A DNA stretch of 32,000 nucleotides from assembly GCF_000020025.1 (NCBI RefSeq), contig NC_010628.1, positions 1,740,001 to 1,772,000 of the forward strand, written 5' to 3'. A program made the position numbers and the translations under genes. Below the pieces are notes generated by a model. It did no database searches, was not told the DNA's origin, and saw only the letters and a program-made list of their open reading frames with translations. How positions within the stretch are numbered: the stretch's first letter is position 1; each line of letters opens with the position of its first letter. Below are positions 7,486 through 32,000 of this stretch, one piece after another. Source of the stretch: Nostoc punctiforme PCC 73102. GTDB lineage: Bacteria; Cyanobacteriota; Cyanobacteriia; Cyanobacteriales; Nostocaceae.

Positions 7486-7497
7486 AAAAGTTATAGC

Positions 7498-8085: not shown

Positions 8086-8147
8086 TTCTGAGTACTCAGT
8101 AAGAATCAGATGAAAGACATCTAAATTAGACATCTGGTGAAAAAGAA

Positions 8148-8178
8148 TGTAGAGACATTGCAATGCAACATCTCTACA
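8148..8178. terminator. Hairpin between the convergent TetR and MlaD-like genes (possible bidirectional terminator or dispersed hairpin repeat)
   Basis: tgtagaga (8148-8155) and tctctaca (8171-8178) flank a 15-nt loop. No clear T-tract. A separate 12-nt perfect palindrome ctgagtactcag lies at 8088-8099. Confidence 0.35.
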
Positions 8179-8223
8179 AGAGTTTCAAGTCAAGCATCAT
8201 TAATTTCTGGAGATGTCTATTGC

Positions 8224-9663
8224 CTATTTTTCCGTCTCCAGTTGCTCTCGTTGCTTACCATACTCCCGCAGCTGTTTTAACAAGACTTCTTGGGATGAGT
8301 TAGGGATAGACGGACTAGGGGTTGGTTGAAGGTTGATGTCACTACTTTCAAAATTAGCAGGTGAAGGATTAACTTCATAGATGGGTAGCGACTTATCATT
8401 AGACATTGCTTGTTGGGTTGGTACTGGGGTAGGAATTAGATTATTTGGTTTGTTCACAGCAGCTTTTACCGAATCTAGAGTAGTAGCAACTTGTACTTGT
8501 TGCTGCATCTCTTGTGTAGAAGAGACTAAACCACTTAAACCATTCACCAATTGCCGCAAATTTTTTCGGAAATTAGGATCGCCTGTCAATTCATCCAAAT
8601 CAGATGTAATTTTTTGAGTATTTTCAAAGGTTACTCTTGCTGAATCTAAAGTTTGTTGCAGCAGCACCACATTCTTGGGATCGTTTAAGGTTTTAGAAGC
8701 ATCGCGTAAATTAGCTGAGGCTTGCGCTGCATTTGCTGAAAGAGCTTCTAAATTATTGAGTAATTCTCCTTGAGTCAATCGATTGACAGATGGTGATAGG
8801 CTACTGACTGTAACACGTAGTTGGTTGCTGGTTTCGGTGATATTATTTAAAGCGCCAACCAGCGAAGAACGATTTGTTGTCAACAGGTTATCCAGGTTGT
8901 TGAGCAAACGATTTGCTTGAGTTGCAGTTGCACCGAATTTATTTACTGTTTGATTTGCAGATGCATTAAGTTGGTTTGTCGCTCGTTGCACTGAATTAGC
9001 AGTGGCTGAAAATGTATTTAATTGTTGTCGCAAGCTTTTAGTCAAACCTTGTAAATCCTGACTTAGTTCAGTAAAACTGGATGCTGCACCTGTGGTAGTT
9101 TCTAGAACCCTATTGACATTTCTATAAAATTTGGGGTCATTGTATGATGAAGCTAGATCGGTTGAACTGCGAATTAATTCATCAACACTGATGCCAATCT
9201 GACCTTTTAAGCGAGAGCCATTACAGACAATCAGACTGGAATCGCAACTTTTATCTAGGGGTCTAGCAATTACAACCCCAGCAGGTAAAGTTGTTTTTGG
9301 TGTAATGTCGATAACACTTTCGCTAATTAATCCACTTTGATTAGCTTCCACCACGACATCACGGGGGATAATTAAGTCAGTTTGGGCAATTTCAATTTCT
9401 ATATCAATCGCATTCGCTTTTGGTAGAACCTGAGAAATAGTTCCTACTTTAACACCTCGATAGCGAACTATTGCTCCCTTTTGCATTCCGCCAGCGTTAG
9501 CAAATTCCACAATCATTTTGTATGAACGGCCAGCAGCAGTAAATCTATTTAACCACAATAAGAGTAACCCGAATACTCCTAGTCCTAGCAGGAGCAACAA
9601 CCCCACAGAGCCTTCTCTAAATGTTCGCCCAGACGCGAAGCGGCTTGTCATAAGACCTCGCAT
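8224..9663 (-). CDS. MlaD/MCE-domain protein (TGD2-like) with a long helical C-terminal extension
   Basis: 479 aa. An N-terminal TM (VGLLLLLGLGVFGLLLLWL) is followed by an MCE fold (YKMIVEFANAGGMQKGAIVRYRGVKVGTI...DVVVEANQSGLISESVIDI). About 300 aa of N/Q/S/T/L-rich heptad-like sequence follows. Confidence 0.8.
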   Translation of the reverse strand: MRGLMTSRFASGRTFREGSVGLLLLLGLGVFGLLLLWLNRFTAAGRSYKMIVEFANAGGMQKGAIVRYRGVKVGTISQVLPKANAIDIEIEIAQTDLIIPRDVVVEANQSGLISESVIDITPKTTLPAGVVIARPLDKSCDSSLIVCNGSRLKGQIGISVDELIRSSTDLASSYNDPKFYRNVNRVLETTTGAASSFTELSQDLQGLTKSLRQQLNTFSATANSVQRATNQLNASANQTVNKFGATATQANRLLNNLDNLLTTNRSSLVGALNNITETSNQLRVTVSSLSPSVNRLTQGELLNNLEALSANAAQASANLRDASKTLNDPKNVVLLQQTLDSARVTFENTQKITSDLDELTGDPNFRKNLRQLVNGLSGLVSSTQEMQQQVQVATTLDSVKAAVNKPNNLIPTPVPTQQAMSNDKSLPIYEVNPSPANFESSDINLQPTPSPSIPNSSQEVLLKQLREYGKQREQLETEK

Positions 9664-9686
9664 ATTTTTCCTCTACCCAATAATTA

Positions 9687-9770
9687 GTTATGAGTTTGGA
9701 GTGATGAGTTAGGAGTTATGAATTGAATTTAACTCTCATTCCTCATTTTTTACTCCTCACTTTTCACTTT
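9687..9770. repeat. STRR-like heptamer array with an inverted pyrimidine-rich arm, in the mlaF-mlaD spacer
   Basis: gttatga gtttgga gtgatga gttagga gttatga (9687-9721) is followed by ctcattcctcattttttactcctcacttttcac, which has tca-initiated heptamers in opposite orientation. Confidence 0.6.
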
Positions 9771-10553
9771 TTAACCGACGACTTGAATCGGCCCTTGCAC
9801 GCTTCCACTCATAAATTGTTTGATCAAGGGATTTTCTGTGTTGTATATCTCACTAACTGTACCCTGCCACTGCACTCTCCCTTCATAGAGAAATATAAGT
9901 CTATCAGCTGTACGGCGAATAGTGCTGTCTTGGTGAGTAACAACAGCGTATGTACTACAAACTCCATTCAAACATTGCAAATAGCGGATTAAATCTTCGA
10001 TTACAGTTGAGGCAATAGGATCGAGTCCGGCTGTTGGTTCATCGTATAACAGAACTTCTGGTCCTTCTGAGGGATTATCGGGGTTAGACATGATTGCACG
10101 GGCAAAACTTACCCGTTTTCGCATTCCCCCGGAAAGTTCGGCTGGGTAAAGGTCGCTTATTGATGGCAAACCGACCATCTCCAATTTTTCTTTTACCAAA
10201 TCTCGAATGCGCGATCGCGGCAACTTTGAATTTTGATAAAGTAAAAATCCCACATTCTCCTCCACCGTCAGCGAATCAAATAGCGCCGCCTGTTGAAACA
10301 CCATGCCAATGCCAACTGGCTGTCCAGCATCCTCAATCAAACCGTCCCGCCGTACTCCTTGAACATAAATTTCTCCTTCATCAGGAGCAAGTAACCCCGC
10401 CATCACCCGTAGAATTGTTGATTTACCAGTCCCTGATGGCCCAATAATCCCTAGTGCTTCTCCCCGGTAGATGGTTAAGTCTACATTATCTAGAACTTTA
10501 TGGCTACCAAAGGACTTAGAAACACCTTTTAGTTCAATCAATGGTTCAGTCAT
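9771..10553 (-). CDS. ABC transporter ATP-binding protein, MlaF/TGD3-like
   Basis: 260 aa. Walker A is GPSGTGKST, the ABC signature is LSGGMRKRVSFARA and Walker B is LLYDEPTAGLD. It lies directly upstream of the MlaD-like gene on the same strand. Confidence 0.9.
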   Translation of the reverse strand: MTEPLIELKGVSKSFGSHKVLDNVDLTIYRGEALGIIGPSGTGKSTILRVMAGLLAPDEGEIYVQGVRRDGLIEDAGQPVGIGMVFQQAALFDSLTVEENVGFLLYQNSKLPRSRIRDLVKEKLEMVGLPSISDLYPAELSGGMRKRVSFARAIMSNPDNPSEGPEVLLYDEPTAGLDPIASTVIEDLIRYLQCLNGVCSTYAVVTHQDSTIRRTADRLIFLYEGRVQWQGTVSEIYNTENPLIKQFMSGSVQGPIQVVG

Positions 10554-10574
10554 TAGTTATTAGTCATTAGTCAT
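10547..10574 (-). repeat. Four tandem heptamers (ATGACTA-type) that contain the mlaF start codon
   Basis: The minus strand reads ATGACTA ATGACTA ATAACTA ATGACTG. The third ATG (10553-10551) is the annotated start. Confidence 0.75.
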
Positions 10575-11196
10575 TGGTGAGCCAATGCCTTGGCAGGTTC
10601 CCCTATTTGTACCCTTACCAGGAAGCAAGCTACGCAGTGATGTCATAGTTATTGATAAGGCATTTGTATATTACATTATAAGTATATGATTAGCATTTTA
10701 ATTAGCAAACTTTATTTTTTTAGCATAATAATATTTAGTTATTTACAATTTTAATGTCATAGAATCCCCTTAACCCAACGTTCACAAAGATACCGTAGTA
10801 ACTTAATGTCTCAGTAAAGGGAAACTAAGACTCCAGTTTTCTGTGGAGATTAGCAAATCCGTTTAATAATATATTCATCCCATTAGAGGCTATAACTACT
10901 CAAATAAAAGCCAAGAAATAATTAACTGTTTAAAGTAATATATAGCAATTTTATTTTTGAAATTCAAGTTTTGCGAACTACTGACTTATCTTAAACTCTA
11001 GGTTTATAGTTATTTTAAAATGATTTGCAATTGCTATACAAATATTTAATTAATTAACATCTAAAGTTATTGCTATTAACAGAGCTATTATCTTATTTTA
11101 GATGTTAATAATATTTGTCCTAAATCTTGTAGTTGTCAACTACAAAAATTATTTACTAATATTGTAATATTACTAAGAAAAATAAAAGTAGAGATT

Positions 11197-12240
11197 ATGA
11201 GTAGCAACTTAGAACAGTTTGCAAGTGATAATTCTTCTGGTATTTGCCCAGAAGCGCTGGAATATATGATTAGAGCAAATCAAGGTAGTGTTCCAGCTTA
11301 TGGGAATGATGAATGGACTCAAAAAGCAACAGATTATTTTCGGGAACTCTTCGAAATTGATTGTGAAGTATTTTTCACCTTTAATGGTACAGCCGCAAAT
11401 TCTTTATCTTTAGCTGCCCTTTGCCAGTCATATCACAGCGTAATTTGCCATGAAACATCTCACATAGAAACAGATGAATGTGGCGCACCTGAATTTGCAT
11501 CTAATGGTTCTAAACTTTTACTTGCCCAAGGGAAAAATGGCAAGTTAACACCAGAATCTATAGAGGCAATTGTCACTAGACGCACTGATATTCATTATCC
11601 CAAGCCTAAAGTTATTAGTATTACCCAATCAACTGAATTAGGAACTTTATATTCTATTGAAGAACTTCTAAAAATTAAAGGAGTAGCGAAAAAGTATAAT
11701 TTAAAAATTCACATGGATGGCGCTCGTTTTGCAAATGCAGTTGCCGCTATGAATAAAAGCCCTGCTGAAATTACTTGGAAAACTGGAGTAGATGTATTAT
11801 GCTTTTGTGGTACTAAGAATGGAATGGCATTAGGTGAAGCAATTCTTTTCTTCAACAAAGAGTTAGCAGAAGACTTTGATTATCGATGCAAGCAAGCAGG
11901 TCAGTTAGCGTCAAAAATGCGGTTTATTTCTGCTCCTTGGTTGGGTTTATTAGAAACGGGTGCTTGGCTAAAAAATGCTAGACATGCTAATCAATGTGCT
12001 GAATATTTAGAAAATCAACTCTTAAATATAGAAGGCGTTGACTTGATGTTTCCCAGAGAAGCCAACGCCGTATTTGTGAAATTACCTGAACAAGTCATTC
12101 ACACCTTAAAAGCAAATAACTGGCAGTTTTATACATTTATCGGTGTGGGAGGAGTACGTTTTATGTGTTCTTGGAACACAACACAATCTAGGATTGATGA
12201 ACTGATTGATGATATTAAAAAAGCAATCATAGCTATCTGA
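11197..12240 (+). CDS. Low-specificity threonine aldolase family (PLP-dependent beta-eliminating lyase fold)
   Basis: 347 aa. FASDNSSG, FTFNGTAANSL, HMDGARFANA and CFCGTKNGMALGEA (candidate PLP lysine) were read from the translation. The gene is very AT-rich. Confidence 0.8.
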   Translation: MSSNLEQFASDNSSGICPEALEYMIRANQGSVPAYGNDEWTQKATDYFRELFEIDCEVFFTFNGTAANSLSLAALCQSYHSVICHETSHIETDECGAPEFASNGSKLLLAQGKNGKLTPESIEAIVTRRTDIHYPKPKVISITQSTELGTLYSIEELLKIKGVAKKYNLKIHMDGARFANAVAAMNKSPAEITWKTGVDVLCFCGTKNGMALGEAILFFNKELAEDFDYRCKQAGQLASKMRFISAPWLGLLETGAWLKNARHANQCAEYLENQLLNIEGVDLMFPREANAVFVKLPEQVIHTLKANNWQFYTFIGVGGVRFMCSWNTTQSRIDELIDDIKKAIIAI

Positions 12241-12260
12241 TTGGTAAAAATTGGTGTTAT

Positions 12261-12297
12261 CTAGATATCCGATTTATTTAAAAATTCGGATATCTAG
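12261..12297. terminator. 12-bp perfect-stem hairpin between convergent genes
   Basis: ctagatatccga (12261-12272) and tcggatatctag (12286-12297) flank a 13-nt A/T loop. Flanking T-tracts are weak. Confidence 0.45.
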
Positions 12298-12341
12298 TAT
12301 CAATTACATCTGAGGTTGCTACCAAACAACCGGATTTGATA

Positions 12342-12782
12342 TTACTTGCTATGAAACTTTAGTTGCATCTTTGATTGCTGCCACAATCCCAGATGCTTAT
12401 TTTTAGCATTAGCTTCTGCAATTAAATATTGGGTTTTGCTTTCATAGCAATTTTGTAAAGATTCTCTGTCAACGACAGCATTACCTGACTCTACCAAAAG
12501 GAGATTTACTGACCGATTATCCACAAACACTTCACCAACTGTCCGACCATTTTCGAGTTTTTCTATACTTCTAATCACAACAGGGGTTTTAGGCGGTAGT
12601 AGCTGTTTTAACCTTTGTGTCGCTGCTAAAGTATACACTTGTCCAACCGCCTTTGGTGCATTAATACACGCTAGCTTGACTGGAATTGTTTGTCCGGCAT
12701 TATCTTTAACTAAAATTGTGTTTCCGTCTGTAACACCAACTACTGTAGCTAGCACCAACATTAGTTCAAGTAATTCCATCAT
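12342..12782 (-). CDS. Staphylococcal-nuclease (thermonuclease) fold protein whose active-site residues appear substituted
   Basis: 146 aa. VTDGNTILV...VKLACINAPK...NGRTVGEVFVDNRSVNLLLVESGNAVV...AEANAKNKHLGLW follows the SNase fold pattern (DGDT...RLLxVDTPE...GR...LVxxGxA...AKxxxxGxW). N/K/N/A/K replace the catalytic D21/R35/D40/T41/E43. Confidence 0.7.
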   Translation of the reverse strand: MMELLELMLVLATVVGVTDGNTILVKDNAGQTIPVKLACINAPKAVGQVYTLAATQRLKQLLPPKTPVVIRSIEKLENGRTVGEVFVDNRSVNLLLVESGNAVVDRESLQNCYESKTQYLIAEANAKNKHLGLWQQSKMQLKFHSK

Positions 12783-12864
12783 TTTGTATGTAAGAATTTA
12801 TGCATGAATATCATGTTATTGCAGTGCTTAGGTTGCTAGTGTGATTTGACTCACAAAATATTAT

Positions 12865-13428
12865 TTACTTGATAAATGCTTTGTAATCTTCAATTAACTT
12901 TGCCAAGCGGGAAGCAAGAAATGGACTTGCATCCCGCAAAGCTTCATAAATCTGAATACCTTCTTCTCGATATCGAATAATTTTGTCTTGAGTCCAATAA
13001 TGTGGTGGTGCTTGGAGATTGGTGATTCTATCTGCTAGTTTCACCATCCATATTTCTTGTGGTTGCTTCTTTATCCTTTGTAAACTATCTGCCATTCGGA
13101 GATGTTTTGCTAAATTTTCATCTTTAGTCAGTGCAAGTACACCATTAGCTACTGATTCACCAAATTCGGTTCTGATTTCCTCAAACGTTGTATTAGTATC
13201 CTCGATTGTGTCATGCAAAATAGCACATTGAATAGCAAGATTCCCATCATGCTCTGTTTCCACACTTATGGCTGCAATTACTTCCATACTCACAAGATTC
13301 AAGTGCATAAGGTAAGGTATTTCTGAACCTGCCATTTTCTGACCTTGATGTGCGTATGCTGCTTTCTTTAAGGCTTTAATGTAAATTTCTTGAGACCAGC
13401 TTTTTGGGCTGAGTTGATATTTTTCCAT
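12865..13428 (-). CDS. HD-domain protein of the RelA/SpoT hydrolase type (small alarmone hydrolase-like)
   Basis: 187 aa. AHQGQKMAGSEIPYLMHLNLV and AILHDTIEDTNTTFEEIRTEFGESVANGVLALTKD match the (p)ppGpp-hydrolase HD signature. Confidence 0.75.
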   Translation of the reverse strand: MEKYQLSPKSWSQEIYIKALKKAAYAHQGQKMAGSEIPYLMHLNLVSMEVIAAISVETEHDGNLAIQCAILHDTIEDTNTTFEEIRTEFGESVANGVLALTKDENLAKHLRMADSLQRIKKQPQEIWMVKLADRITNLQAPPHYWTQDKIIRYREEGIQIYEALRDASPFLASRLAKLIEDYKAFIK

Positions 13429-13524
13429 TTATCTATTCTTCTCATGAAGTGATGTTATGTAGTATGCCACAATCTTAAATAGGATAACCGTAGTATAACA
13501 AGTACTTGATATCAATCAAAAACT

Positions 13525-14793
13525 CTAAAAAGAAACTACAGGTAATTGAACACTCACAGTAGTACCTGTTAAGAGGTCAGAGCAGATCGACAGTTCTCCA
13601 TTATGAGCATTGAGGATGCGTTTAGTAATAGCAAGCCCTAGCCCAGTGCCACAAGGTTTTGTGGAGAAGAATGGCTGAGAAAGCTTGCTTATAAATTCTG
13701 ATGGGATTGGTTCACCGCCATTGTGGACATTAATATAGACTTTATTTATATGAGAACAATCTACTTTACATTTAACAATATCTCCTGGTGCAACTGCCTC
13801 GCAAGCATTACGAAGAATGTTAATAAATACTTGTTTAAGTTTGTCCTTATCCCCCAAAACTTTTACTGTAGGTAACACCGGAAAAAATTCAATTTTTCGT
13901 TCCAGAGCTTCTGGCATTTCATGAATGTATACCAATAACTCATGAATTAGTTCATTCACATCTAATTCACAAAGCTGCAATACTTGAGGTTTGGCGTATA
14001 GCAAAATTTCACTTAGCAGACGCTCCAAACGACTAGATTCAGTCAATGCCAACGCTAATCGCTCTTGAGCAGATTCTGTTAAAATGGTTTTTTGGAAATA
14101 CTTTAATCCCATAATCATTGTAGTTAAGGGATTACGAATTTCATGCACAATCATGGCAGCGAATTCACCAATAGCTGCCAATCGCTCCTGTTCTAAAAGC
14201 TTGGCTTGGGTTGCTTGTAATTCTGCGGTGCGTTTTTCTACCTCAGCTTCTAAAATATGATTAAATTTGCACTGTTGTTGATAAAGATGATAGTTGTCAA
14301 TTGCTGTTGCGGCTCGTTCAGCAAACAATTCCACAATTTGGATATCTTCTTTTGTAAAATCACGCGGTTGGTGATTAAAAGAACATATAGTGCCAATTAC
14401 CTTGTTTTCAGCAGTTCGCAATGGTATCCCTAAATATGCACAATAACCTTCTGGAGCTTGTCCATATTCTGGGTATTTTTGAGCATCTTTCACGGCTAAT
14501 GAATGACCCATTTGAATAACAGTACCAGTCAGTAAACCATGTAGTGAATAAACATGTTCACCATCACCCATTTCGAGACTACTGGCTAGAACAGTTTCAA
14601 ACCCCTCTTGGCAAAAAGTAACAACTGTCCAATCAACTCCAATAAGTTCGCTGACTCCACAGGCAATATTATGCAAATAGCTACCTAGTTCACCAGTTCG
14701 ATAGTTTAAAGAAGACAAACGGATTATGATTTGTCGCTCACGTTGCCAAGTTTGGTTGTGCAACAATATTTCGTCATTACTAGTTTTGCTCAT
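13525..14793 (-). CDS. Cytoplasmic GAF-domain sensor histidine kinase
   Basis: 422 aa with no TM segment. A GAF-like region (DWTVVTF...GIPLRTAENKVIGTICSF) precedes a coiled coil, the H-box MIVHEIRNPLT and a G-box (GTGLGLAITKRI). Confidence 0.85.
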   Translation of the reverse strand: MSKTSNDEILLHNQTWQRERQIIIRLSSLNYRTGELGSYLHNIACGVSELIGVDWTVVTFCQEGFETVLASSLEMGDGEHVYSLHGLLTGTVIQMGHSLAVKDAQKYPEYGQAPEGYCAYLGIPLRTAENKVIGTICSFNHQPRDFTKEDIQIVELFAERAATAIDNYHLYQQQCKFNHILEAEVEKRTAELQATQAKLLEQERLAAIGEFAAMIVHEIRNPLTTMIMGLKYFQKTILTESAQERLALALTESSRLERLLSEILLYAKPQVLQLCELDVNELIHELLVYIHEMPEALERKIEFFPVLPTVKVLGDKDKLKQVFINILRNACEAVAPGDIVKCKVDCSHINKVYINVHNGGEPIPSEFISKLSQPFFSTKPCGTGLGLAITKRILNAHNGELSICSDLLTGTTVSVQLPVVSF

Positions 14794-15171
14794 GGATACT
14801 TATTGCATGGGTTATGAAAATAATTTCAAAAATCGACTGGATAGTTATTTTGATCGAGCTGTACTATTTTGAGAGAAAGATTCTACTAGACACATTATGC
14901 TATTTACATACAACAAACTGATTAATTTTTAGTTGAATAAATGTAAAATTATACAACAATGATATATTGAAAAATAAGTGGTGTCATCGTGAGTAAAATC
15001 AAACAATGTCAGAGTGTTATGTAGCCTAATCCATCATAGATATCGCTTGGCTTCAATCTACTCCATTTACGATGATATGGTTAAGTTTATTTATATCTAA
15101 GTACTTAAAGACTGAAAAATTAGATTTTTCTGGGAAATTTATAATAGAAAACATCTCAAACGGGAATAACT

Positions 15172-15669
15172 ATGACAGTCAATCTACAAGGAATATTACA
15201 GCAACCGGGGCAAGGTTCTTCATACTGGGTGCTTGGAGATTTGTATACTTTTAAGGCAGTAGGTGAAGAAACTAGTCAAGCTTATGCTCTAATTGAGATT
15301 ACCGTTCAACCACAAAACGGCACACCTCCCCACATTCATAGTCACGAAGACGAAGCTTTCTATATTCAAGAGGGAGAATTGGAATTTCAGCTTGATGAGC
15401 AGATTCTTTTAGCAACCCCTGGAACCTTTCTCCACTCTCCTAAAGGTCAACTTCACAGATTTTCAAATATCGGTACAAAGCCAGCAAAATTACTTTGCTG
15501 GTTCACACCAGCAGGGTTAGAGAAGTTTTTCATGGAAGTAGGTGTGCCAGTCTCAGAGAAAATACAATTACCTAGCATTAGTCCCGCAGATATCGAAAAA
15601 GCGTTGGCAGCTGCTTCAAAGTATGGTCTTAAAATTATTCCGCCGTCTGCTGCATCTTCGCAGGTATAA
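15172..15669 (+). CDS. Cupin-domain protein
   Basis: 165 aa. GTPPHIHSHEDEAFYIQEGELEF...HRFSN is a two-motif cupin signature. Confidence 0.8.
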   Translation: MTVNLQGILQQPGQGSSYWVLGDLYTFKAVGEETSQAYALIEITVQPQNGTPPHIHSHEDEAFYIQEGELEFQLDEQILLATPGTFLHSPKGQLHRFSNIGTKPAKLLCWFTPAGLEKFFMEVGVPVSEKIQLPSISPADIEKALAAASKYGLKIIPPSAASSQV

Positions 15670-15763
15670 GCTAAATATAACTACAAGCGATCGCAGTTAG
15701 ACACCAAACAACAGTGTTGGAAAGTTTCAGAAGAGCGATCGCTAACTAAGCTAATCAACATTT

Positions 15764-18435: not shown

Positions 18436-18490
18436 TGCGGGAAATAACTTAAGACGCTGTTTAATGGTTATGCTGCGATCGCATAAAATT

Positions 18491-21400
18491 CTATAATTGC
18501 TCACCACCAATATCTTGATCTTCAATCTGCCCGGAAAATACGGAAATCATCTCTCGAAGCTGATCTATAATTTCTTGTGCTTGTAGCTCTTGGGCAATAT
18601 CTAATGCTCGCTGTAGCTGCTTTAATCCTTCGGCGGATTTATTTTGTGCTAGCAACAGTTGTCCCAGCAAGCCTAAAGTAGCAGGTTGGCTGTTTTTATG
18701 ATTGATACTGCACTGAAATTCATACGCTTTTCGAGCAAGTTCAATTGCCTCTTCTATATTTCCTTGTTGAGCAGCAAAATTAGCTTGTTCATATAAGTAA
18801 ACTGCCTCATTGTTCTTTACTGTGAAAATTATTTCCTGTAATTCGTCAATTCCATCAAGTTGATTTTCTTGAGCCAAAGAAACTGCCCTTTCCAAATCTT
18901 GTACTCCACCTTGATAATCGCCCTGATGTGCCTTGATTTGACCAAGCATTGATAAAACTTCTGAACACCAGCGAACATCCTTTAATATTTCTGAAAGTTC
19001 TAAACATTGGTGAGCTAAATTCAGCACTTCTTCAAATTCTTGGCTTTCGCATTTTTCCTGAGCCGAATCAAAAAGGTGTCTGAGTTTTTCGTACTGTACT
19101 GCAAGGGCAATATTTTCTATCTTTTCCCTCTCAGGAAGATTATGCTGTTTGGCAATTTCAATCGCTTGTGATGCTCTTTTAACACCCTCCGCAAAATCTC
19201 CTTCATGTATCAAAAGGTTTCCCATTGATAGCAAAATACCTGCTTTCATTTCTTCGTCGCCAAGTTGTTCAATCATAGGTAGGGCTTGCTCAAGTAAATC
19301 AAGTGCCGCTCTTGCATTACCTTTTTCTGCTTCGGTTGCTGCTGATTGATACAACCGCATAGGCTTTATTAGTTGAGTATTCTTAATTAGCCCTCTAACT
19401 TTTTCGACATCATTAGTCCAATTTAATTTTTGGTAAATATTGAGGGATTCTGTTAAATGCTCAAATGCAACATCTACTTCACCAAGAAAGGATAAAACCT
19501 CTCCTAAAAGCTTGAGAATAGTAGCTCGAAGAACAACATCAACAACTGAACTACATTTCTCTAAAGCTTCCCCTAAAAAATCTGCTCCTGTATTATAATT
19601 TTCTTGTTTTATTTTAAGCCGTCCCATTTCTCTAAGAGCGAGCGCATGATGTTTTGGATTGTTAAATTGATTTAGTATTGCTAAAGCTGTATTTAATTTC
19701 TCTTCGGCCTCATCTAAATTATCTTGATCAATCAGTATCGATGCGATTCGTGGTAAAACATGGGCTTGAGTGTCTTTATTTCCAATCTTCAATGACAACT
19801 GGTAAGAATCTTCGAGAAACTTTAAAGCTTCACTGACATTATTTTGACGCTCATAGAGAATTCCTATCTCCTGAAGTGTCATTGCTTCACGCGGTTGATC
19901 GCCATTCTTTCTGTGCAGTTCAAGAGCTTGATTGTAAAGCTCTAAAGCAAGCTCACGATCACCACATTCTGAGCGGAAAGTAGCTAGATTATGTAAAAGC
20001 ATTGCCTTGAGCCAAGAGTTATCAATTTGAGGCAGTAATTTGTTCAACTGTTCTAAAATCTCTCTTGCCTCTTCTATTTCACCTTGTTTAAGCCTCAGCG
20101 ATGCTGTATTGCTGAGGAGTGGAATTTTATCCTCAAGGTTTTCGGACTGCGTTCTATGTGAAACTAAACTTGGTAATAGGTTATCCCAAGCATCAGTTTG
20201 ACCAAGATCAACTTGAAGAGTGGCAATGTTATTTTGTACAGTATATAGAAAATTTTTATCCCCTGTTTCTTGAGTAAGTTCTAGTACTTCCATATACAAT
20301 TTAAGTGCTTCTTCGGGTTCACCTAATTCTCTCTTAATATCTGCTATTTGACTAAGGGACTTAGCTTTACCGAGCTTATTATTATCTTTCTCATCAATTT
20401 TCATAACCTGCTGGCATATCGTCAGGGCTTGCTGATAGTTACCCTGCTTAACGTATAAATCCGCTAAATCATGTAAAATTGCAGCTTTTTCAGTTTCATA
20501 TTCATCCGAACAAAGTTTTAGTGCCTCTTGATAGTTATACAAAGCCTCTTCCACTTCCCCAATATGTTCTTGCGCTTTTGCTAAGTAGTAGAGGAGCCTA
20601 AAAGAGATAATATGAATTTTTAAGTGAGCATAAGCTCCATCACGGACAAATTTACATAGCGTAGCTACTTCTCTGTACCTTCCTTGGCGGTTGAGCCGCA
20701 TGACTAAAAACCAATTTGCTCTAGTTAATAAGTCTGGATTGAAAGCTTCAGTTGCAAGTCGATATAACTCAAACAACCTATCACTGGGCATGGATTTCTC
20801 AAAAGGATCATAAGGCTGAAAGTTTTCTGATAGTTTTTCCTCTGCCTTTATACTTTTTTTAAAACCTTTAAAAAACCATATTTTATCTAAATATTCCGCA
20901 GCAGCTTTATATAAATCTATGGAATCTTTAGGAAAATCAAGAAGTGGCTCTATAATTCGTGGAACATAGTACAAAGTTTCTTGTTGAGAATGTATACACT
21001 CAAGTAAACCTAATGCAACCGCTCTAGAAATATAACTATTTACATCGAAAGTTTTTGGACAAAGAACTTCTATTGCAGACTGAGGCACTGGTAACTTATA
21101 AACCAAGCTAAACCCAAGCATTCGTTGCAATTTGATTGGTTGTCGATTGAGTAATTCCTCTGCCAGAATACTTTCACGAAAGTCTTGGGTGGTTTTCTCT
21201 ACCTGTTCTAGTATTTGTGTCTTACCAACTTGTTGCACTTGTAAAACTTTGTCTAACCACTCTAACAAACGAGGATTACCTGCCGAAGTTGCCAAAGCTT
21301 TGAGTTGTAACTCTCGATCGATTTCAGAACCAGGTGCAAAAGATACTAAACGGTTACATTTTTTCTGTAGTTCAGTACCTGATAAGGCAGCTAACTGCTC

Positions 21401-23017
21401 TCGGTGGAATCGCTGATTTAGCTCTGGAAGCAAAAAATCATACCTGGATGTAATAATAATCCGGTGTGGAAGACGCGATTGAGTTATTGCCTTCAACAAA
21501 GATATCAAGACTGCTACAGCTTCAGGCTTTAAGACTGCACTACCGTCTGTTCTCAATTCTAGGTTTGCTTCAAAGTCATCAAGAACAAAGATTAGTCTCT
21601 GCACTTGCTCATTCAGTCCTTCTCGTAAGAATTTGGTTAACTTTTGCGTGAGTGGTAGATTTCTTTGTAAAATTTCCTGTCCCGTTGCTGAAAGACATTG
21701 TTCAGCAAGCTGCCTTAGCAGCTTATCCTCATCTAATTGCCGATAGATAAAAATTTCGTCATAGCCTTGTAAACGTTCTAAAAGCCTTGCTGCAACAGTA
21801 CTTTTACCAACTCCACCTAAACCATATAAAATTACACCTAACTTATCTGCTGCCCGTAATGCTCTCAAGGTACGTTGCAGTATTCTGCGTCTTCCTACAA
21901 ACTCCTGTGGTGTGGCAACCCGAACAATTCCTTGCGAATCTAGAAACTGTTCATAAATCGGTTCTTCTGGCAACCATACTTGATCGCCTAATGGTTCAAT
22001 CAATGCTTTTGGACACTGACCTCGGATATAAAGTCTAAGTAGATGCCAATCCTCAACCTTGGCCTCTCGTAGATATTGATAAGTACTAGCAAGTGCCTCC
22101 GAAAGTTCATACCCGGCAGCCAGTTTGCTGTAGAGATATGCTGCGGCTTGTGTAGCTACTACATCTGCTATCGGTCGTCCCCATCCTAAAACGGCTCGAC
22201 AACCTTGCTCAATTAATGATTCAGCTAAAGAAGATACTGCACCATCACTCGCCGCTTCACCTGTTCGGCAACCTGATAAAAACACTAGCTGCGGTATACG
22301 AAACCTTAAAGCTGAAGCAATCTCTGATGCGTATGCCGGGTGAAGTTCACCAGTTTCAGTTTCTGTAAGAAAAAACGGCCGTTCATCCTTAATAGATGCA
22401 TGTCCCGTCAGGTGAAAAACATCGAACGGTTCACGATAACGTCCCCAGAGTTTGCTTAGTTCTGCAATACAACCACTTTCTTCTACTCGTAAATTAAGAG
22501 GAATATCTCTTGTTTCTGTCAAAATTTGAGCTTCTTCCTGCTCAAAATCGAGCGGCGGTTCTACATCGTCTGGCGATGTTGCCATGAATAAAATCCGTAA
22601 AGGACGTTGCTGGGTATCCTCTAAATCTTGAATAGAACGATCAACCCAACGTATTGGAACGACAACTGGATTAACACGTTCTATTAAAAATTGCTCTCCA
22701 TTATGCAACGTTTCCCAAGGCAGATGCCCTAATCGTTCACGCACATCTAGCGCTAAAATTAACCCTTCCTCTGTGCAATTATTAATTGCTCGACTTAGCC
22801 ACCTGCCAGTTCCATCCAACCAACAAAATAATTGATACCCAATTCCTTTTAAATCAGGCATCAGCATGTAGTAGCTACCTTTTGCCTTCTGAATTAAGTT
22901 TTCAATTGATGATATATCAAGCTGTTGTGTTTCATATCTTGCTTGATGTCCTACTGCATAACGCAATTCTACAAAGTGCTTTTCAAGCGGTACTAATTTG
23001 ATGTAAAACGTCTGCAC
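18491..23017 (-). CDS. CHAT (caspase-like) protease / STAND P-loop NTPase (NB-ARC-like) / ~770-aa TPR array protein
   Basis: 1,508 aa with a GTG start. The putative dyad is His206 in FHLTGHAS (nt 22400-22402) and Cys250 in VFLSGCRTG (nt 22268-22270). Walker A is GLGGVGKST (nt 21797-21823) and Walker B is LIFVLDDFE. From about aa 740 to the end the sequence is TPR-like, with repeated A..Y...L.I......G / ...A...L motifs. Confidence 0.9.
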   Translation of the reverse strand: MQTFYIKLVPLEKHFVELRYAVGHQARYETQQLDISSIENLIQKAKGSYYMLMPDLKGIGYQLFCWLDGTGRWLSRAINNCTEEGLILALDVRERLGHLPWETLHNGEQFLIERVNPVVVPIRWVDRSIQDLEDTQQRPLRILFMATSPDDVEPPLDFEQEEAQILTETRDIPLNLRVEESGCIAELSKLWGRYREPFDVFHLTGHASIKDERPFFLTETETGELHPAYASEIASALRFRIPQLVFLSGCRTGEAASDGAVSSLAESLIEQGCRAVLGWGRPIADVVATQAAAYLYSKLAAGYELSEALASTYQYLREAKVEDWHLLRLYIRGQCPKALIEPLGDQVWLPEEPIYEQFLDSQGIVRVATPQEFVGRRRILQRTLRALRAADKLGVILYGLGGVGKSTVAARLLERLQGYDEIFIYRQLDEDKLLRQLAEQCLSATGQEILQRNLPLTQKLTKFLREGLNEQVQRLIFVLDDFEANLELRTDGSAVLKPEAVAVLISLLKAITQSRLPHRIIITSRYDFLLPELNQRFHREQLAALSGTELQKKCNRLVSFAPGSEIDRELQLKALATSAGNPRLLEWLDKVLQVQQVGKTQILEQVEKTTQDFRESILAEELLNRQPIKLQRMLGFSLVYKLPVPQSAIEVLCPKTFDVNSYISRAVALGLLECIHSQQETLYYVPRIIEPLLDFPKDSIDLYKAAAEYLDKIWFFKGFKKSIKAEEKLSENFQPYDPFEKSMPSDRLFELYRLATEAFNPDLLTRANWFLVMRLNRQGRYREVATLCKFVRDGAYAHLKIHIISFRLLYYLAKAQEHIGEVEEALYNYQEALKLCSDEYETEKAAILHDLADLYVKQGNYQQALTICQQVMKIDEKDNNKLGKAKSLSQIADIKRELGEPEEALKLYMEVLELTQETGDKNFLYTVQNNIATLQVDLGQTDAWDNLLPSLVSHRTQSENLEDKIPLLSNTASLRLKQGEIEEAREILEQLNKLLPQIDNSWLKAMLLHNLATFRSECGDRELALELYNQALELHRKNGDQPREAMTLQEIGILYERQNNVSEALKFLEDSYQLSLKIGNKDTQAHVLPRIASILIDQDNLDEAEEKLNTALAILNQFNNPKHHALALREMGRLKIKQENYNTGADFLGEALEKCSSVVDVVLRATILKLLGEVLSFLGEVDVAFEHLTESLNIYQKLNWTNDVEKVRGLIKNTQLIKPMRLYQSAATEAEKGNARAALDLLEQALPMIEQLGDEEMKAGILLSMGNLLIHEGDFAEGVKRASQAIEIAKQHNLPEREKIENIALAVQYEKLRHLFDSAQEKCESQEFEEVLNLAHQCLELSEILKDVRWCSEVLSMLGQIKAHQGDYQGGVQDLERAVSLAQENQLDGIDELQEIIFTVKNNEAVYLYEQANFAAQQGNIEEAIELARKAYEFQCSINHKNSQPATLGLLGQLLLAQNKSAEGLKQLQRALDIAQELQAQEIIDQLREMISVFSGQIEDQDIGGEQL

Positions 23018-23018
23018 A

Positions 23019-23345
23019 TTAACTCTCCAACTCTTCTAACACTGCACAGATGTCTTCAATAGTGGCATTCTCCAAGACAACTCGCATATCATCAGTTACA
23101 AGTACTACATTAAACTTCTTATTAGATCGTTTATGTTCCTGATACCATTTACGGATTTGTTCTGCGACTGCGACTGTACCTCCTACAATCCCGACCACAG
23201 TGCCTATCACAGCCAATGTACCTTCTTTGGTAGTCACAGAATTTGCTGCTATCTCCCAACTACCCTGTAGACCAGTGGTTTCAAACAGTTTTTCAGCAGC
23301 AATATCAGTTTCTTCACCTTCAAGGGACAGCTTTACCTTTACCAT
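23019..23345 (-). CDS. Small single-pass membrane protein (108 aa) translationally coupled to the CHAT-STAND gene
   Basis: ATG start. The central Gly/Val-rich helix is TLAVIGTVVGIVGGTVAVA (nt 23163-23219), followed by the basic stretch RKWYQEHKRSNKK. Its TAA stop (23021-23019) is one nucleotide from the downstream GTG (23017). Confidence 0.7.
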   Translation of the reverse strand: MVKVKLSLEGEETDIAAEKLFETTGLQGSWEIAANSVTTKEGTLAVIGTVVGIVGGTVAVAEQIRKWYQEHKRSNKKFNVVLVTDDMRVVLENATIEDICAVLEELES

Positions 23346-23416
23346 ATATTAATTGAGTAGCTATAAATATAAGTATACTATTCATTTTTTTTACAATACA
23401 CTAACAGTCAGCAAAT

Positions 23417-24490
23417 TAGACCTCTTGCAGAATTCATTTTGTGTTATGATATCGGGTTTTGTCTTAATGCTAGTGGCAAGAGATAATTGAGAAAGGCAAT
23501 ACCTAAAGCATTCAGAAGAGATGGCTACAATATTTCGTAGGAACTATCGCCAAAAAAAGATAGAATTAAATTCTGTTATTTCCATAAAATCAGGTTATCA
23601 ATAAATGAAATATCAGTGCATCCAAAAGTTAAATCCAAGAGCATTTAAACGTCGCTTTGGAGTTAGAAGAAAAACTTTTAAGAGCATGGTTAAAACTATA
23701 AAATCATTCCAAAAGATTAATAAACACTCTAATCCGGGTGCCAAACCTATAATTGATATTGAGAAACAAGTTTTAGTTACCTTAGAATATTGGAGAGAAT
23801 ACAGAACTTACTTTCATATTGCAACTAGTTGGGGAGTCTCGGAATCAACTATTTGCCGCATTGTTCATCGCATAGAATCAGAACTGATGCAGTCAGGAAT
23901 GTTTCGTCTTCCTGGAAAAAAAGCTTTGCTGCAAGGTTTAAGTCAGCCGGAAGTAGTAGTAATGGATGTAACTGAAACACCCATTGAGCGTCCAAAAAGA
24001 AAACAACAGGAATTTTATTCAGGTAAGAAAAAACGTCATACTCTCAAAAGGCAATTGATTATTAATCAAGAAACGGGCGAAATTATTTGCACTTTCTTTG
24101 GGAAAGGTCGCTGTCACGATTTTGCTTTATTCAAAGCTAGTGGAATTAATTTTCATCCCGAAACACAAGGTTTATACGATAGCGGTTATCAAGGAATTAA
24201 TCAATATCATAGTAACAGTTACACTCCCAAAAAAAAGCCTAAAAAAGGAAACCTATCTATCTTAGAAAAAGACTATAATCGGGTTCTAGCAAAAGAGAGA
24301 ATCGGTATTGAACACATCAATTGCCGTCTGAAAATTTTCAAGATTTTTGGCGATAGATATCGTAATCGCCGTCGTCGTTATGGTCTGCGTTGTAACTTAC
24401 TAGCCTCAATTTACAACTACGAATTAAGTTTACCAGAAGCAAAATTCCAAACCCCCACCATAACATAAAAGTAATTCTGCAAGAGGTCTA
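23417..24490 (+). mobile_element. Intact insertion sequence (1,074 bp), IS5-superfamily / PIF-Harbinger-like (DDE_Tnp_4 type)
   Basis: Perfect 18-bp terminal inverted repeats: tagacctcttgcagaatt (23417-23434) and aattctgcaagaggtcta (24473-24490). The outer TA could instead be a TA target duplication flanking 16-bp repeats. One transposase ORF lies inside. Confidence 0.85.
23605..24468 (+). CDS. Transposase (HTH plus DDE_Tnp_4-type catalytic domain)
   Basis: 287 aa. Candidate DDE residues lie in VVVMDVTETP, LYDSGYQGI and IGIEHINCRLK. The N-terminal HTH is WGVSESTICRIV. Confidence 0.85.
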   Translation: MKYQCIQKLNPRAFKRRFGVRRKTFKSMVKTIKSFQKINKHSNPGAKPIIDIEKQVLVTLEYWREYRTYFHIATSWGVSESTICRIVHRIESELMQSGMFRLPGKKALLQGLSQPEVVVMDVTETPIERPKRKQQEFYSGKKKRHTLKRQLIINQETGEIICTFFGKGRCHDFALFKASGINFHPETQGLYDSGYQGINQYHSNSYTPKKKPKKGNLSILEKDYNRVLAKERIGIEHINCRLKIFKIFGDRYRNRRRRYGLRCNLLASIYNYELSLPEAKFQTPTIT

Positions 24491-25121
24491 TTATGCTCTA
24501 AATCATGGTATTTTACTCAAATTTTTGAAATATTTCTTATAAAATAAAATCTTACAGAAACCTGATATTCACTTATATATAGGCATAGATAATTATTTAT
24601 AAGATATGAGAGATATAGAGATTATACAGTCAGATTTATAAGCTTCATGTCACCCCTTGTGATGGAACTATTTCACCCAAGTTAAAGTTCGTTCTCGCAT
24701 CTAGTCTTGGTGTGAAGATTCTATTGTTAGCATTTCTGATCACCAATGGCTTTTTTTTGCGATCGCACCTTGTAATGGCGAAGATACTAGATTTAAAGAA
24801 AGAATTTTCGGTATGGAAGGATAATGGTAAAGCAGGAAATATAATAAATTTTAAGGTAATTCTCATCGAAAATTAATTTAGTTACTATGAAACTAAATTA
24901 ATCTATTATTAGAGAAGGATTTGCAGGGTTGAGACGGTGATTAAAGAAAAATCTTTCGCAATCTTTCAGGGATGGCTGCACTTTTCACTGTAGGTATGCA
25001 ATAGAGCTAAGTTTAAATCAGCTATAATTAAAAATTTAGCGGTTAATAGTAACTTTACATATAGCATTCTGATTTTTTTATTGATATAGCTTTATTCAAC
25101 ACCTAAAATGTAACCACAAAA

Positions 25122-29815: not shown

Positions 29816-30850
29816 ATGCAGCCAAAAAATTTAAAACGTCTCCTGCGTGCTTTAGAGCGGCAGGGTTTGGATGTAACTTACGATAATCGCACTTATTCTG
29901 TCCGTTTAGTTAATTCTCCTGATGCCCCTGTAGCAGAAGTGCTACTGCCAGAAGGCTTACCTGTAGAAGCTAGAGCACTGAAGCAGTTAGCGAATTTGGC
30001 AAGCGTCCGCCACCCATCTGGTGGATGCGTTTGCCGTGCCTGTGCTACCCCTGACTTTCACCCAGGTGATGCGGGTGTTGCCATTGGTTCAATTGTAGAA
30101 ACTGTGGGTCAGGTTATCCCTGGCACTGTCGGTTCTGATATCAATTGTGGAATGCGCCTGCACGTTGCTGATTTGACAATCGATGAATTCATGGCAAAGC
30201 GCGACCAATTCGTCGAAAAAATGAAGGGGGATTACTTCTTTGGTACGCGTGATGTGACAATGACTGCTGAGGCAATGCGATCGCTATTTCAATACGGAAT
30301 TCCTGGTTGGCTGGATGCCATGCTAGATCGGCCTACCGGGAGTGTAGTCAAATCTGATTTGCAGCAACTTACCCAAGAGAGCGAACGCATCTTCTTAGGT
30401 GGTTCAATGGATGGTAACTGGAAACTCGCGCCTGAAGAATTGGTTCCCGATGCTGGAATAGTACGCGATGGTGGACTGGCAACTATTGGCGGCGGCAATC
30501 ATTTTGTAGAAGTTCAGCGAGTTGATAAAGTCGAAAATCGCCCACTTGCCCACGCTTGGGGAGTGCGCGAGGGACAACTAGCTTTTATGATTCACTCTGG
30601 TTCTAGAAACGTGGGTAAGTATATCGGGGGAATGTGGCGAGATAAAGCTAAGGCGACTTGGCAAAAAGGTCTGAAGTACCCTGATTCTCAGATTTTTCCT
30701 CTCTCTACCCATTCTCACCCCGAATTAGTCGCCAGTTACCTGCAAGCTGAGGCAACTGCTGCTAACTATGCTTTTATTAATCGCCTGCTATTAGCAGAAC
30801 TGCTACGTCTGCGTTTGCGAGAAGTATATAATGCAATACGGTTCAGTTAA
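29816..30850 (+). pseudogene. rtcB: rtcB (RNA 3'-phosphate ligase family), C-terminally truncated and probably interrupted by the adjacent IS
   Basis: TPDFHPGDAGVAIGS, GSDINCGMRL, GGGNHFVE and IHSGSRNVG are the N-terminal RtcB metal-site motifs. The ORF ends about 85 aa after HSGSR in non-conserved-looking residues (..EVYNAIRFS*). IS4-type sequence follows directly. Confidence 0.7.
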
Positions 30851-32000
30851 GGCTCAAAGTGATGTAAATTAGGCATTGTTCCCAAGAATAGAAATTAAGT
30901 ATCGTGCATCTGAGGGATTTTTCGTTGGTGTCTCCTGAGATACAAAACGCTGATTTGCTCAAAGCAATCGAGATGGCTATTCCAGCAACAGCAATTGAAC
31001 AGGCGATAAGCCTGCGGCATGGCTTCGCTTACCGCTAATATCCAAACTCAAGAAGAACGCAAACGATCATTACCAGCACAATTGGTGGTAAGCCTTGTAA
31101 TTGCAATGAGTCTGTGGTCAAAAGACTCGATGCGGGATGTATTGAAGAATTTGATTGATGGACTCAGTGAGGCATGGCTTAAGGTTGGTAAATACTGGCG
31201 AGTAGCTTGTAAGTCAGCCATTACACAAGCCCGGCAGCGATTAGGTGCAAGGGTAATGTGCAAATTATTTCATCAGCTAGTAAAACCAATGGCGACACAG
31301 GAGACATTAGGAGCGTTTCTCCAAGAACTAAGAATTGTAGTCATTGATGGCAGCTGTTTTGATGTTCCAGACAGCGATGAAAATGCGAGAGTTTTTGGTC
31401 GTCCTGGTAGCCGTCCTGGGACAAAAGCCGCGTTCCCTAAAGTTAGACTAGTATATTAGTAGAAGCAGGAACACATATAATATTTGATGCACTGATGTGG
31501 CCGTATCGCATCGGAGAGCGAGTACGAGCATTAAGATTATTACGTTCGGTCACACCAGGAATGTTGTTGATGTGGGATAGAGGATTACATTCCTACGCAA
31601 TGGTACAAGCAACAGTAACCAAGGGATGCGATTATTTAGGCAGAATACCAGCCAATATCAAATTTATTGCCGAAAAACCCTTAGAAGACGGCTCTTATTT
31701 ATCATGGATTTACCCATCGGGAAAGCTACGAAAAAAAGCTAGTCAGCCAATACTTGTACGCATCATTGAGTATACAATTGAGCATCCTGACAATCCAACC
31801 GAACAACTGACATATCGCTTAATTACTAGTTTATTAAACATTGAGAAATTTCCTGCCGAGTTGTTGGCGAGGGAATACCATCAGCGATGGGAAGTAGAAA
31901 ATACCATTGATGAGTTGAAAATACATCTTCTAGGGCGAAAAACTCATGTCCGTTCCCAAAAACCACGAGAGGTTGTGCAAGAAGTATATGCTTGGTTATT
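30851..32000 (+). mobile_element. IS4-family insertion sequence, partial (runs off the window). The left boundary is unresolved, somewhere around 30826-30903
   Basis: It contains an IS4-type transposase reading frame (see the next feature). The right end and the second inverted repeat are outside the window, so the ends cannot be defined. Confidence 0.7.
30904..32000 (+). pseudogene. IS4-family DDE transposase with two apparent frame disruptions
   Basis: Frame 1 from GTG 30904 reads VHLRDFSLVSPEIQNADLLKAIEMAIPATAIEQAIS... Frame 2 (31019-31459) reads TQEERKRSLPAQLVVSLVIAMSLW...VVIDGSCFDVPD...KVRLVY**. Frame 1 from 31462 reads EAGTHIIFDALMWPY...LMWDRGLHS...YHQRWEVENTIDELK, open to nt 32000. 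One missing T at about 31455-31457 (tat tta gta gaa -> tattagtagaa) would restore ..KVRLVYLVEAGTH.. Confidence 0.65.

Follow-up and report, generated by a model that had tools for sequence, protein, structure and literature searches.

The two-gene EACC1-caspase system was defined computationally by Kaur, Burroughs, Iyer and Aravind (eLife 2020, PMC7159879), where it is designated System 4. It consists of a 5' gene for EACC1, short for Effector Associated Constant Component 1, and a 3' gene for a caspase-fused protein, which may carry up to 50 alternative C-terminal domains, STAND NTPases and repeats among them. The hallmark of EACC1 is a single, strongly conserved hydrophobic helix that has a patch of small or glycine residues at its centre and alpha+beta elements on either side. 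About one third of the surveyed caspase partners have transmembrane (TM) helices, and EACC1 systems as a whole are strongly associated with the multicellular habit (PMC7159879). The present analysis concerns a gene pair of this type found in a 32,000-nucleotide stretch (the window) of the chromosome of Nostoc punctiforme PCC 73102 (NC_010628.1, positions 1,740,001 to 1,772,000; all positions below are counted from the first letter of the window). The pair, at 18491-23345, encodes a 108-residue small protein of the EACC1 family and a 1,508-residue large protein in which a CHAT protease is joined to a STAND NTPase and a tetratricopeptide repeat (TPR) array. It is probably an EACC1-caspase conflict module, in which the STAND-gated CHAT protease would cleave EACC1 to yield membrane pores and abortive infection.

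One such system has been dissected genetically and biochemically, namely the EACC1 and caspase-Avs12 pair of Ktedonobacter racemifer (Evans et al. 2025, bioRxiv 10.1101/2025.11.14.688446). In this pair a phage tail connector protein sets off a toxicity that requires both EACC1 and the catalytic Cys of the protease (10.1101/2025.11.14.688446); the trigger of Avs12 has also been given as the portal adaptor, and Avs-type STANDs are known to sense core phage proteins (PMC13581612). The protease cuts EACC1 into fragments of 5.7 and 7.1 kDa in a catalytic-Cys-dependent manner, with Asp49 as the putative cleavage site, the C-terminal fragment alone being toxic and liposomes being permeabilised solely by cleaved EACC1 (10.1101/2025.11.14.688446). 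In the autoinhibited monomer the N-terminal strand pairs with two C-terminal strands, and cleavage was proposed to lift the autoinhibition of the pore-former, as with bacterial gasdermins (10.1101/2025.11.14.688446). A preliminary description of the Nostoc locus had called the pairing experimentally uncharacterised, which the definition of System 4 in 2020 and the dissection of the Ktedonobacter pair in 2025 contradict. Its remark that small "effector-associated constant component" proteins accompany such effectors was sound, the small protein being an EACC1-family member, and the sensor-switch-effector logic that it proposed fits the published systems. Its suggestion that the CHAT protease acts on the small protein, or is localised by it, finds support in the published homologue for the first part (cleavage) and not for the second.

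The two open reading frames (ORFs) are tightly linked on the minus strand, where all their parts mentioned below are also encoded, with the small gene lying 5' of the large one. The small ORF (23019-23345, 108 aa, ATG start) corresponds to ACC80144.1 / WP_012408165.1, annotated as "hypothetical protein", and the large ORF (18491-23017, 1508 aa, GTG start) to ACC80143.1 / WP_012408164.1, annotated as "tetratricopeptide repeat protein"; a literature search for the accession numbers of both proteins found no paper. The gene junction (23015-23028) reads TAA-T-GTG, with the TAA stop at 23019-23021, the GTG start at 23015-23017 and the T at 23018 as the only nucleotide between them. A GGAG at 23025-23028 sits 7 nt ahead of the GTG and is compatible with translational coupling of the two genes. 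The gap between the two genes is likewise 0-2 nt in close relatives.

The assignment of the small protein depends on several comparisons that point in the same direction. It matches the Pfam family PF19953 (Effector Associated Constant Component 1) over profile positions 16-103 of 107, with 20.5 bits and an E value of 5e-4. A homologue search returned 296 relatives at E <= 1e-3, of which the named ones are all cyanobacterial and mostly 104-110 aa long, and EACC1 is the sole Pfam family that these relatives match recurrently. The profile of the protein's own family (alignment A1; A2 denotes a divergent set), run against 1.84 billion representative proteins, found 236 of them, including a protein (P0387) detected at E 7e-11 that clears the EACC1 cut-off (24.9 versus 23.6 bits) and has a precomputed PF19953 domain. 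The gene for P0387 lies 95 nt upstream of a CHAT-domain gene in its own contig, and hhalign aligned A1 with P0387 over 110 columns with a probability of 98.2% and an E value of 4.6e-14. Since a homologue search seeded with P0387 gave 3 proteins only, the link to Pfam-certified EACC1 is made of one marginally passing bridge plus the recurrent sub-threshold matches. The sub-threshold PF19953 match, the family profile, the hhalign result and the structural model described below together place the product of 23019-23345 in the EACC1 family, as a predicted latent pore-forming effector.

Pfam barely detects this cyanobacterial EACC1 clade, because few of its members match on rescanning: among more distant relatives EACC1 was matched by 6 of 38 (E <= 0.01) and by 5 of 84 (E <= 0.001), and the precomputed Pfam EACC1 domain was present on none of the 120 small-protein relatives listed. 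The same clade has received misleading names in databases. Several public annotations of the Joint Genome Institute (JGI) name close homologues of the 108-aa protein (P0001, P0003, P0012 and P0017) "Na+/glutamate symporter", and others bear unrelated names; all of these are evidently spurious automatic names given to an unrecognised EACC1 clade.

The small protein displays the conserved Gly-rich hydrophobic helix with alpha+beta flanks that characterises the family. Its most hydrophobic stretch is the segment TLAVIGTVVGIVGGTVAVA (residues 43-61, 23163-23219), which has the top 19-residue Kyte-Doolittle mean (2.09) and in which G52 is invariant and G55 and G56 are 97% conserved (A1). This Gly-rich segment, taken at the level of sequence, could be the single TM span that the preliminary description had seen in it. 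The AlphaFold2 (AF2) model, with a predicted local distance difference test (pLDDT) score of 75, comprises a strand (4-10), a helix (13-24), a disordered stretch (36-43), a second helix (56-73), two strands (78-83 and 88-90) and a final helix (96-107), and this predicted order of secondary-structure elements agrees with that of the published autoinhibited EACC1. A fold search of the model gave no PDB relative below E 1e-3 and returned weak, generic ferredoxin/PII-like matches. The Ktedonobacter and Nostoc proteins, which belong to different phyla (the former to the Chloroflexota) and are set side by side by description and not by sequence, can be likened in their predicted layout, in which an autoinhibitory unit at the N-terminus is joined by a linker to a hydrophobic or oligomerising part at the C-terminus.

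The gene 3' of the EACC1 gene encodes a protein that begins with a CHAT peptidase of the caspase superfamily. The CHAT domain (caspase fold, clan CD) occupies residues 1-345 (21983-23017) and is supported by the Pfam match, dyad conservation, the AF2 model and Foldseek comparisons. The Pfam CHAT profile matches residues 86-320 with E 2.6e-24. The catalytic dyad is formed by H206 (22400-22402) and C250 (22268-22270); in 51 large-protein homologues taken from syntenic loci, the sample in which all motif conservation was counted, the His is conserved in 98% and the Cys in 100%, and both are invariant in alignments A3 and A4. Fold comparison and secondary-structure context were used for this domain because no solved CHAT protease could be aligned with it by sequence, the comparisons with PDB chains of a single sequence and of a 26-sequence profile having produced no meaningful match. 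In the AF2 model (pLDDT 69.5) H206 comes right after the strand 200-204 and C250 right after the strand 244-248, each thus following a core strand, which we take to be the clan-CD arrangement. The best Foldseek matches in the PDB, all with probability 1.00, were SAVED-CHAT (8tl0) and the Craspase protease TPR-CHAT/Csx29 (7zoq, 8d9f and 7y84), and the DdvA CHAT domain (8rot), separase and caspases were matched with the same probability.

The CHAT domain is followed by a STAND-type P-loop NTPase module (residues 346-790, 20648-21982), identified from the Pfam AAA_16 match (residues 372-495, E about 1e-9 to 1.6e-10) and from its motifs; NB-ARC, NACHT and nSTAND6 gave matches just under threshold. 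Its Walker A (GLGGVGKST, 21797-21823) and Walker B (LIFVLDDFE, 21569-21595) motifs have the key residues of GxGGxGKS and VLDDFE invariant in the homologues, and two STAND hallmarks are conserved as well, the hhGRxx motif FVGRRR ahead of Walker A and the GxP motif GNPRLLEWL. The C-terminal part (residues 791-1508, 18491-20647) is a TPR array, matched by Pfam TPR_12 in 7 stretches (E 2.4e-60) and by TPR_MalT (E 1e-23) over about residues 803-1490. This array is the presumed sensor of the ligand and the part that varies across the family. Compared by sequence with solved chains, the STAND-TPR part retrieved kinesin-light-chain and LGN-type TPRs only; the NCBIfam scan gave only generic TPR or weak matches, and the TPR region of the window copy shows no tandem repeat at the DNA level. 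No TM segment was predicted among the Pfam matches of the large protein. In Nostocales the large-protein family amounts to 879 matches at E <= 1e-5, typically with CHAT, AAA_16 (in some cases with PF20703) and TPR.

The architecture of the large protein and the intactness of its conserved motifs are direct observations, and they bear out much of what had first been read from the letters: a 1,508-aa fusion of CHAT, STAND NTPase and TPRs, confirmed by ORF coordinates and Pfam; an intact His/Cys dyad and P-loop, now found conserved and in canonical structural positions by the alignment of 51 sequences, AF2 and Foldseek; the two Walker motifs; and the 108-aa upstream ORF with its TAA-T-GTG junction. 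The array of TPRs was also correctly recognised, at a length of about 700 aa instead of the 770 given for it.

The association of the two genes was surveyed in 80 genome loci encoding a relative of the small protein, 79 of which were informative, one ending at a contig edge. A CHAT homologue is the immediate downstream ORF in 69 of the 80 and lies about 0.5-1.8 kb downstream, on the same strand, in 8 more, so that a CHAT(-STAND) gene follows the small gene in the same orientation in 77 of the 79 informative cyanobacterial loci and is missing from 2. The preliminary description had offered a lack of synteny between homologues of the small protein and CHAT-STAND genes as grounds for abandoning its reading; with the CHAT gene kept downstream in 77 of 79 loci, that objection fails. 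Identity to the window co-varies among EACC1, CHAT and STAND across loci (r 0.88-0.99). The total length of the large protein ranges from 712 to 1545 aa, and in distant loci TPR identity falls to 21-42% while that of CHAT is still 45-63%. The near-universal synteny, the co-divergence of EACC1, CHAT and STAND and the variability of the TPRs are directly established: EACC1 and caspase are constant and the variable region is C-terminal to the caspase, which is the pattern ("constant component plus variable region") from which EACC1 took its name. Most of the EACC1-CHAT family is found in cyanobacteria that are filamentous and multicellular, where each genus has many CHAT-STAND-TPR paralogues.

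Some of these loci show particularities of their own. In three from Pseudanabaena / Phormidium tenue (L065, L066 and L074), about 0.5-1.4 kb of small genes (for instance 7278-8632 of L074) stand between the EACC1-like and CHAT genes; judged by eye, one ORF resembles DUF29 and another an antitoxin, and a pair in the opposite orientation looks DUF433 / PIN-like. The TPR array of the L074 homologue (8758-12504) contains long, nearly identical 42-residue repeats, such as GQVEQAIALYQQSLEITDRIGDVQ.KAATLH, and their near-identity points to a recent repeat expansion. In Nostoc sp. LEGE 06077 (L004) the orthologous large gene appears as a 435-codon ORF (about 7329-8636), the 85% DNA similarity spanning the whole gene, with a frameshift, a pseudogene or an assembly error as the probable cause.

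The Nostoc pair has in common with System 4 the gene order, the Gly-rich helix, the N-terminal caspase-superfamily CHAT domain, the variable STAND/repeat region and the multicellular host. The two differ in distribution: according to the 2020 survey the system is prevalent among actinobacteria and found sporadically in proteobacteria, whereas the window copy is part of a large clade of cyanobacterial proteins, most of which score under the Pfam threshold. The large protein also shares with the Avs family (Avs1-21) the layout of an N-terminal effector, a STAND NTPase with Walker A/B motifs and a C-terminal repeat sensor, as well as the exchange of modules. However, Avs effectors are found on the same chain (nuclease or similar), while the large protein would act via a separate substrate protein, and its sensor is a long canonical TPR_12 array, whereas Avs12 is reported to sense a phage tail connector or portal adaptor. 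No solved Avs was detectable by sequence for the large protein.

With Craspase, SAVED-CHAT and the gasdermin-associated proteases, which include its best structural matches, the large protein shares the CHAT fold, the His/Cys dyad and the proposed logic by which an activated protease cleaves, and so unleashes, the product of a neighbouring gene. The activators differ, being a CRISPR effector for Craspase and a cyclic-nucleotide-binding SAVED domain for SAVED-CHAT, in contrast to the fused STAND NTPase that would activate the large protein. Three of these or related systems were considered as identities for the locus and set aside. The type III-E Craspase (TPR-CHAT/Csx29, Cas7-11, Csx30) was rejected because CHAT is here fused to STAND and no cas-related Pfam domain occurs in the scanned neighbour ORFs or in the genes of identical public contigs; in addition, the small protein has no Pfam similarity to Csx30. 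A bacterial gasdermin system was rejected because the 108-aa protein has no gasdermin family match in Pfam, NCBIfam or PADLOC, the logic alone being analogous. The pairs of NLR-associated amyloid signalling (BASS) in filamentous bacteria have a short motif in common at the C-terminus of the upstream small protein and the N-terminus of the NLR; a BLASTP comparison of the small protein with residues 1-150 of the large one revealed no such motif (best E 0.70), and the large protein begins with CHAT.

If the published mechanism is transferred to Nostoc, a site for the cut has to be found in the small protein. Positions 33-39 vary and contain many indels, and residues 36-43 have a pLDDT below 50 in the AF2 model. 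Within this linker, just ahead of the hydrophobic segment, position 40 is K or R in 97% of A1 and 96% of A2, and position 41 is E or D in 97% of A1 and 64% of A2. From this conservation within a disordered linker we infer that K40-E41 (codons at 23223-23228), or an adjoining bond, is a candidate cleavage site. A cut at K40 would produce computed fragments of 4.3 and 7.5 kDa, against the 5.7 and 7.1 kDa reported for Ktedonobacter EACC1; the predicted C-terminal fragment (7.5 kDa) is close in size to the reported one (7.1 kDa).

The mechanism considered probable for the pair would accordingly run from recognition to pore formation. The C-terminal TPR array of this STAND (NLR/Avs-like) receptor would bind a trigger, for which a conserved protein of a cyanophage is the most plausible candidate; that the trigger derives from a phage is what we infer. 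Binding would permit NTP-dependent oligomerisation through the P-loop module, which in turn would gather the N-terminal CHAT domains and switch on the H206/C250 dyad. The active protease would then cut the co-expressed 108-aa EACC1 in its disordered linker, at or beside K40-E41, stripping off the beta-alpha unit that keeps it autoinhibited at its N-terminus. The C-terminal fragment so released, of about 7.5 kDa and carrying the Gly-rich segment, would oligomerise into membrane pores, and these would kill or arrest the cell before the phage cycle is completed (abortive infection).

Several points weigh against this interpretation. The cleavage of EACC1, the release of its autoinhibition and the formation of pores are extrapolated from the Ktedonobacter homologue, that is, from another phylum. 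The small protein remains under the Pfam EACC1 cut-off (20.5 versus 23.6 bits), and the majority of its relatives in cyanobacteria do likewise. The published site is Asp49, while the residue conserved here is basic (K/R40, with E/D after it), which leaves the exact scissile bond uncertain. The TPR array that serves as presumed sensor is of the canonical kinesin-light-chain type, and PADLOC-DB v2.0.0, which predates Avs6-21, matched the large protein with a generic TPR model only and with no Avs model. No phage or defence genes adjoin the locus among the neighbouring ORFs scanned. Finally, an insertion sequence (IS) next to the operon may affect its expression, and a crude consensus scan found no sigma-70-like promoter between the IS and the ATG of the small gene.

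A first alternative retains the same biochemistry and assigns it a purpose other than antiviral defence. According to it, the TPRs would respond to a cue from within the cell or from its surroundings (damage, stress, contact with non-kin or a symbiosis signal, for instance) and set off a regulated death or sacrifice of cells in Nostoc filaments, a possibility that we regard as rather unlikely. The bias of the family towards filamentous multicellular cyanobacteria and its many paralogues per genus speak in its favour, as do the tie between EACC1 systems and the multicellular habit (Kaur et al., PMC7159879) and the fusions of EACC1-associated proteases to DnaK-like chaperones, for which stress-response roles were suggested (Evans et al., 10.1101/2025.11.14.688446). 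It would also suit a sensor that is a canonical TPR array without an Avs model match and the housekeeping character of the flanking genes, which encode a glycogen-debranching enzyme and a histidine kinase. On the other hand, the sole experimentally tested EACC1 system answers to a phage protein, the combination of a constant effector with a variable sensor is typical of defence genes, as is movement as a cassette from one genomic context to another, and no endogenous ligand is known. A related and more doubtful proposal is that the cyanobacterial clade forms a functionally distinct EACC1-like subfamily, invisible to the Pfam model, with the basic K/R40 in place of an acidic residue as cleavage determinant and with long canonical TPR arrays that may sense cues other than phage structural proteins, such as endogenous damage, stress or symbiosis; the module would then operate as a regulated cell-sacrifice switch in multicellular filaments and not as classical abortive infection.

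It has also to be considered that the module may be silent or decaying in PCC 73102, the IS having cut the operon off from its native promoter, which we judge improbable. The IS is of the IS5 type and, with its target duplication, extends over 23415-24493 on the plus strand, outside the module; it was delimited from Pfam matches, inverted repeats and an empty site. The element proper is complete (23419-24489, 1,071 bp), has terminal inverted repeats of about 30 nt and encodes a transposase (23605-24468, plus strand) with matches to DDE_Tnp_4 and HTH_Tnp_4. A 4-bp ATTA target duplication flanks it (23415-23418 and 24490-24493), and the empty site is kept in Nostoc sp. P12646 (L001); no match to the IS DNA was found in a plasmid collection. 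Its end is 73 nt upstream of the small-gene ATG, and not 71 as first given for this correctly recognised element. The clean duplication and the empty site in a related Nostoc speak for this reading, as do the negative promoter scan and the orthologous large gene of Nostoc sp. LEGE 06077, which is apparently interrupted after 435 codons. Yet both ORFs are intact in PCC 73102 with all catalytic residues present, and the promoter scan was a crude consensus search. Cyanobacterial promoters often have no -35 element, and IS ends can supply outward promoters. Moreover, the similarity between the window and four loci (L002-L005) reaches 36 nt upstream of the ATG, and since it extends just that far, a short upstream stretch may suffice for expression.

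The weakest alternative takes up the 2020 hypothesis that EACC1 is a membrane-resident sensor or anchor and neither substrate nor toxin, whose Gly-rich helix would sense a perturbation of the membrane and activate the caspase, which would then auto-process to free the C-terminal region or cleave other cellular targets (PMC7159879), and although the strongly conserved hydrophobic segment could be a true transmembrane helix and about one third of the surveyed caspase partners have such helices, it is very improbable here, given that in the Ktedonobacter homologue EACC1 is itself cleaved, its C-terminal fragment is toxic alone and its cleaved form permeabilises liposomes, that the C-terminal region of the large protein is a STAND+TPR sensor/switch and not a releasable effector, and that the large protein lacks a predicted TM segment among its Pfam matches.

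The movement of the pair between genomes was approached in two ways. HIP1 (highly iterated palindrome) octamers, GCGATCGC, occur 25 times in the window and are missing between 18482 and 24759, which agrees with the 6.3-kb HIP1-free stretch noticed at the outset. This gap is modestly unusual in statistical terms, with P = 0.007 if the interval is taken as pre-specified and P = 0.11 if it is treated as the largest of 26 gaps, and the latter value makes HIP1 depletion a weak sign of foreign origin when taken alone. Better evidence of mobility comes from Nostoc sp. DedQUE02 (L002, locus 6965-11871), whose similarity to the window (23381 down to 18475) covers the two genes alone: it begins 36 nt before the small gene and stops exactly at the HIP1 octamer past the large-gene stop (18475-18482). 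Because this similarity spans just the two genes, the pair moves from one genomic setting to another as a discrete cassette about 4.9 kb long.

Other parts of the window offer observations independent of the pair. A second HIP1-free stretch of 5.5 kb (10218-15687), of low GC content (0.31-0.39), contains a beta-eliminating lyase, a staphylococcal-nuclease homologue, an HD-domain protein and a GAF histidine kinase, and may be another acquired region. At 290-6040, a 1,916-aa ORF with SdiA-regulated, lamin-tail, Calx-beta, cadherin-like / bacterial Ig and RTX calcium-binding repeat domains probably encodes a giant secreted or surface adhesin-like protein. Towards the other end (29816-31459), a 344-aa RtcB-like ORF covers only positions 1-264 of the 426-position RtcB model, and the ORF after it has the N-terminal domain of an IS4 transposase; this RNA ligase gene may have been interrupted by a mobile element.

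In summary, the locus is an intact EACC1-caspase-STAND example from a divergent and poorly annotated cyanobacterial clade, and no new kind of system. It draws attention to a large group of cyanobacterial EACC1 proteins that the current Pfam model misses, and it places a clearly intact module in a filamentous cyanobacterium that is amenable to genetics, Nostoc punctiforme PCC 73102. Should the published mechanism apply here, the pair would be a test case for the ligands of cyanobacterial TPR-type STAND sensors, for whether the conserved K/R40 sets the cleavage site, and for protease-gated pores in cyanophage defence or in the programmed cell death of filaments.

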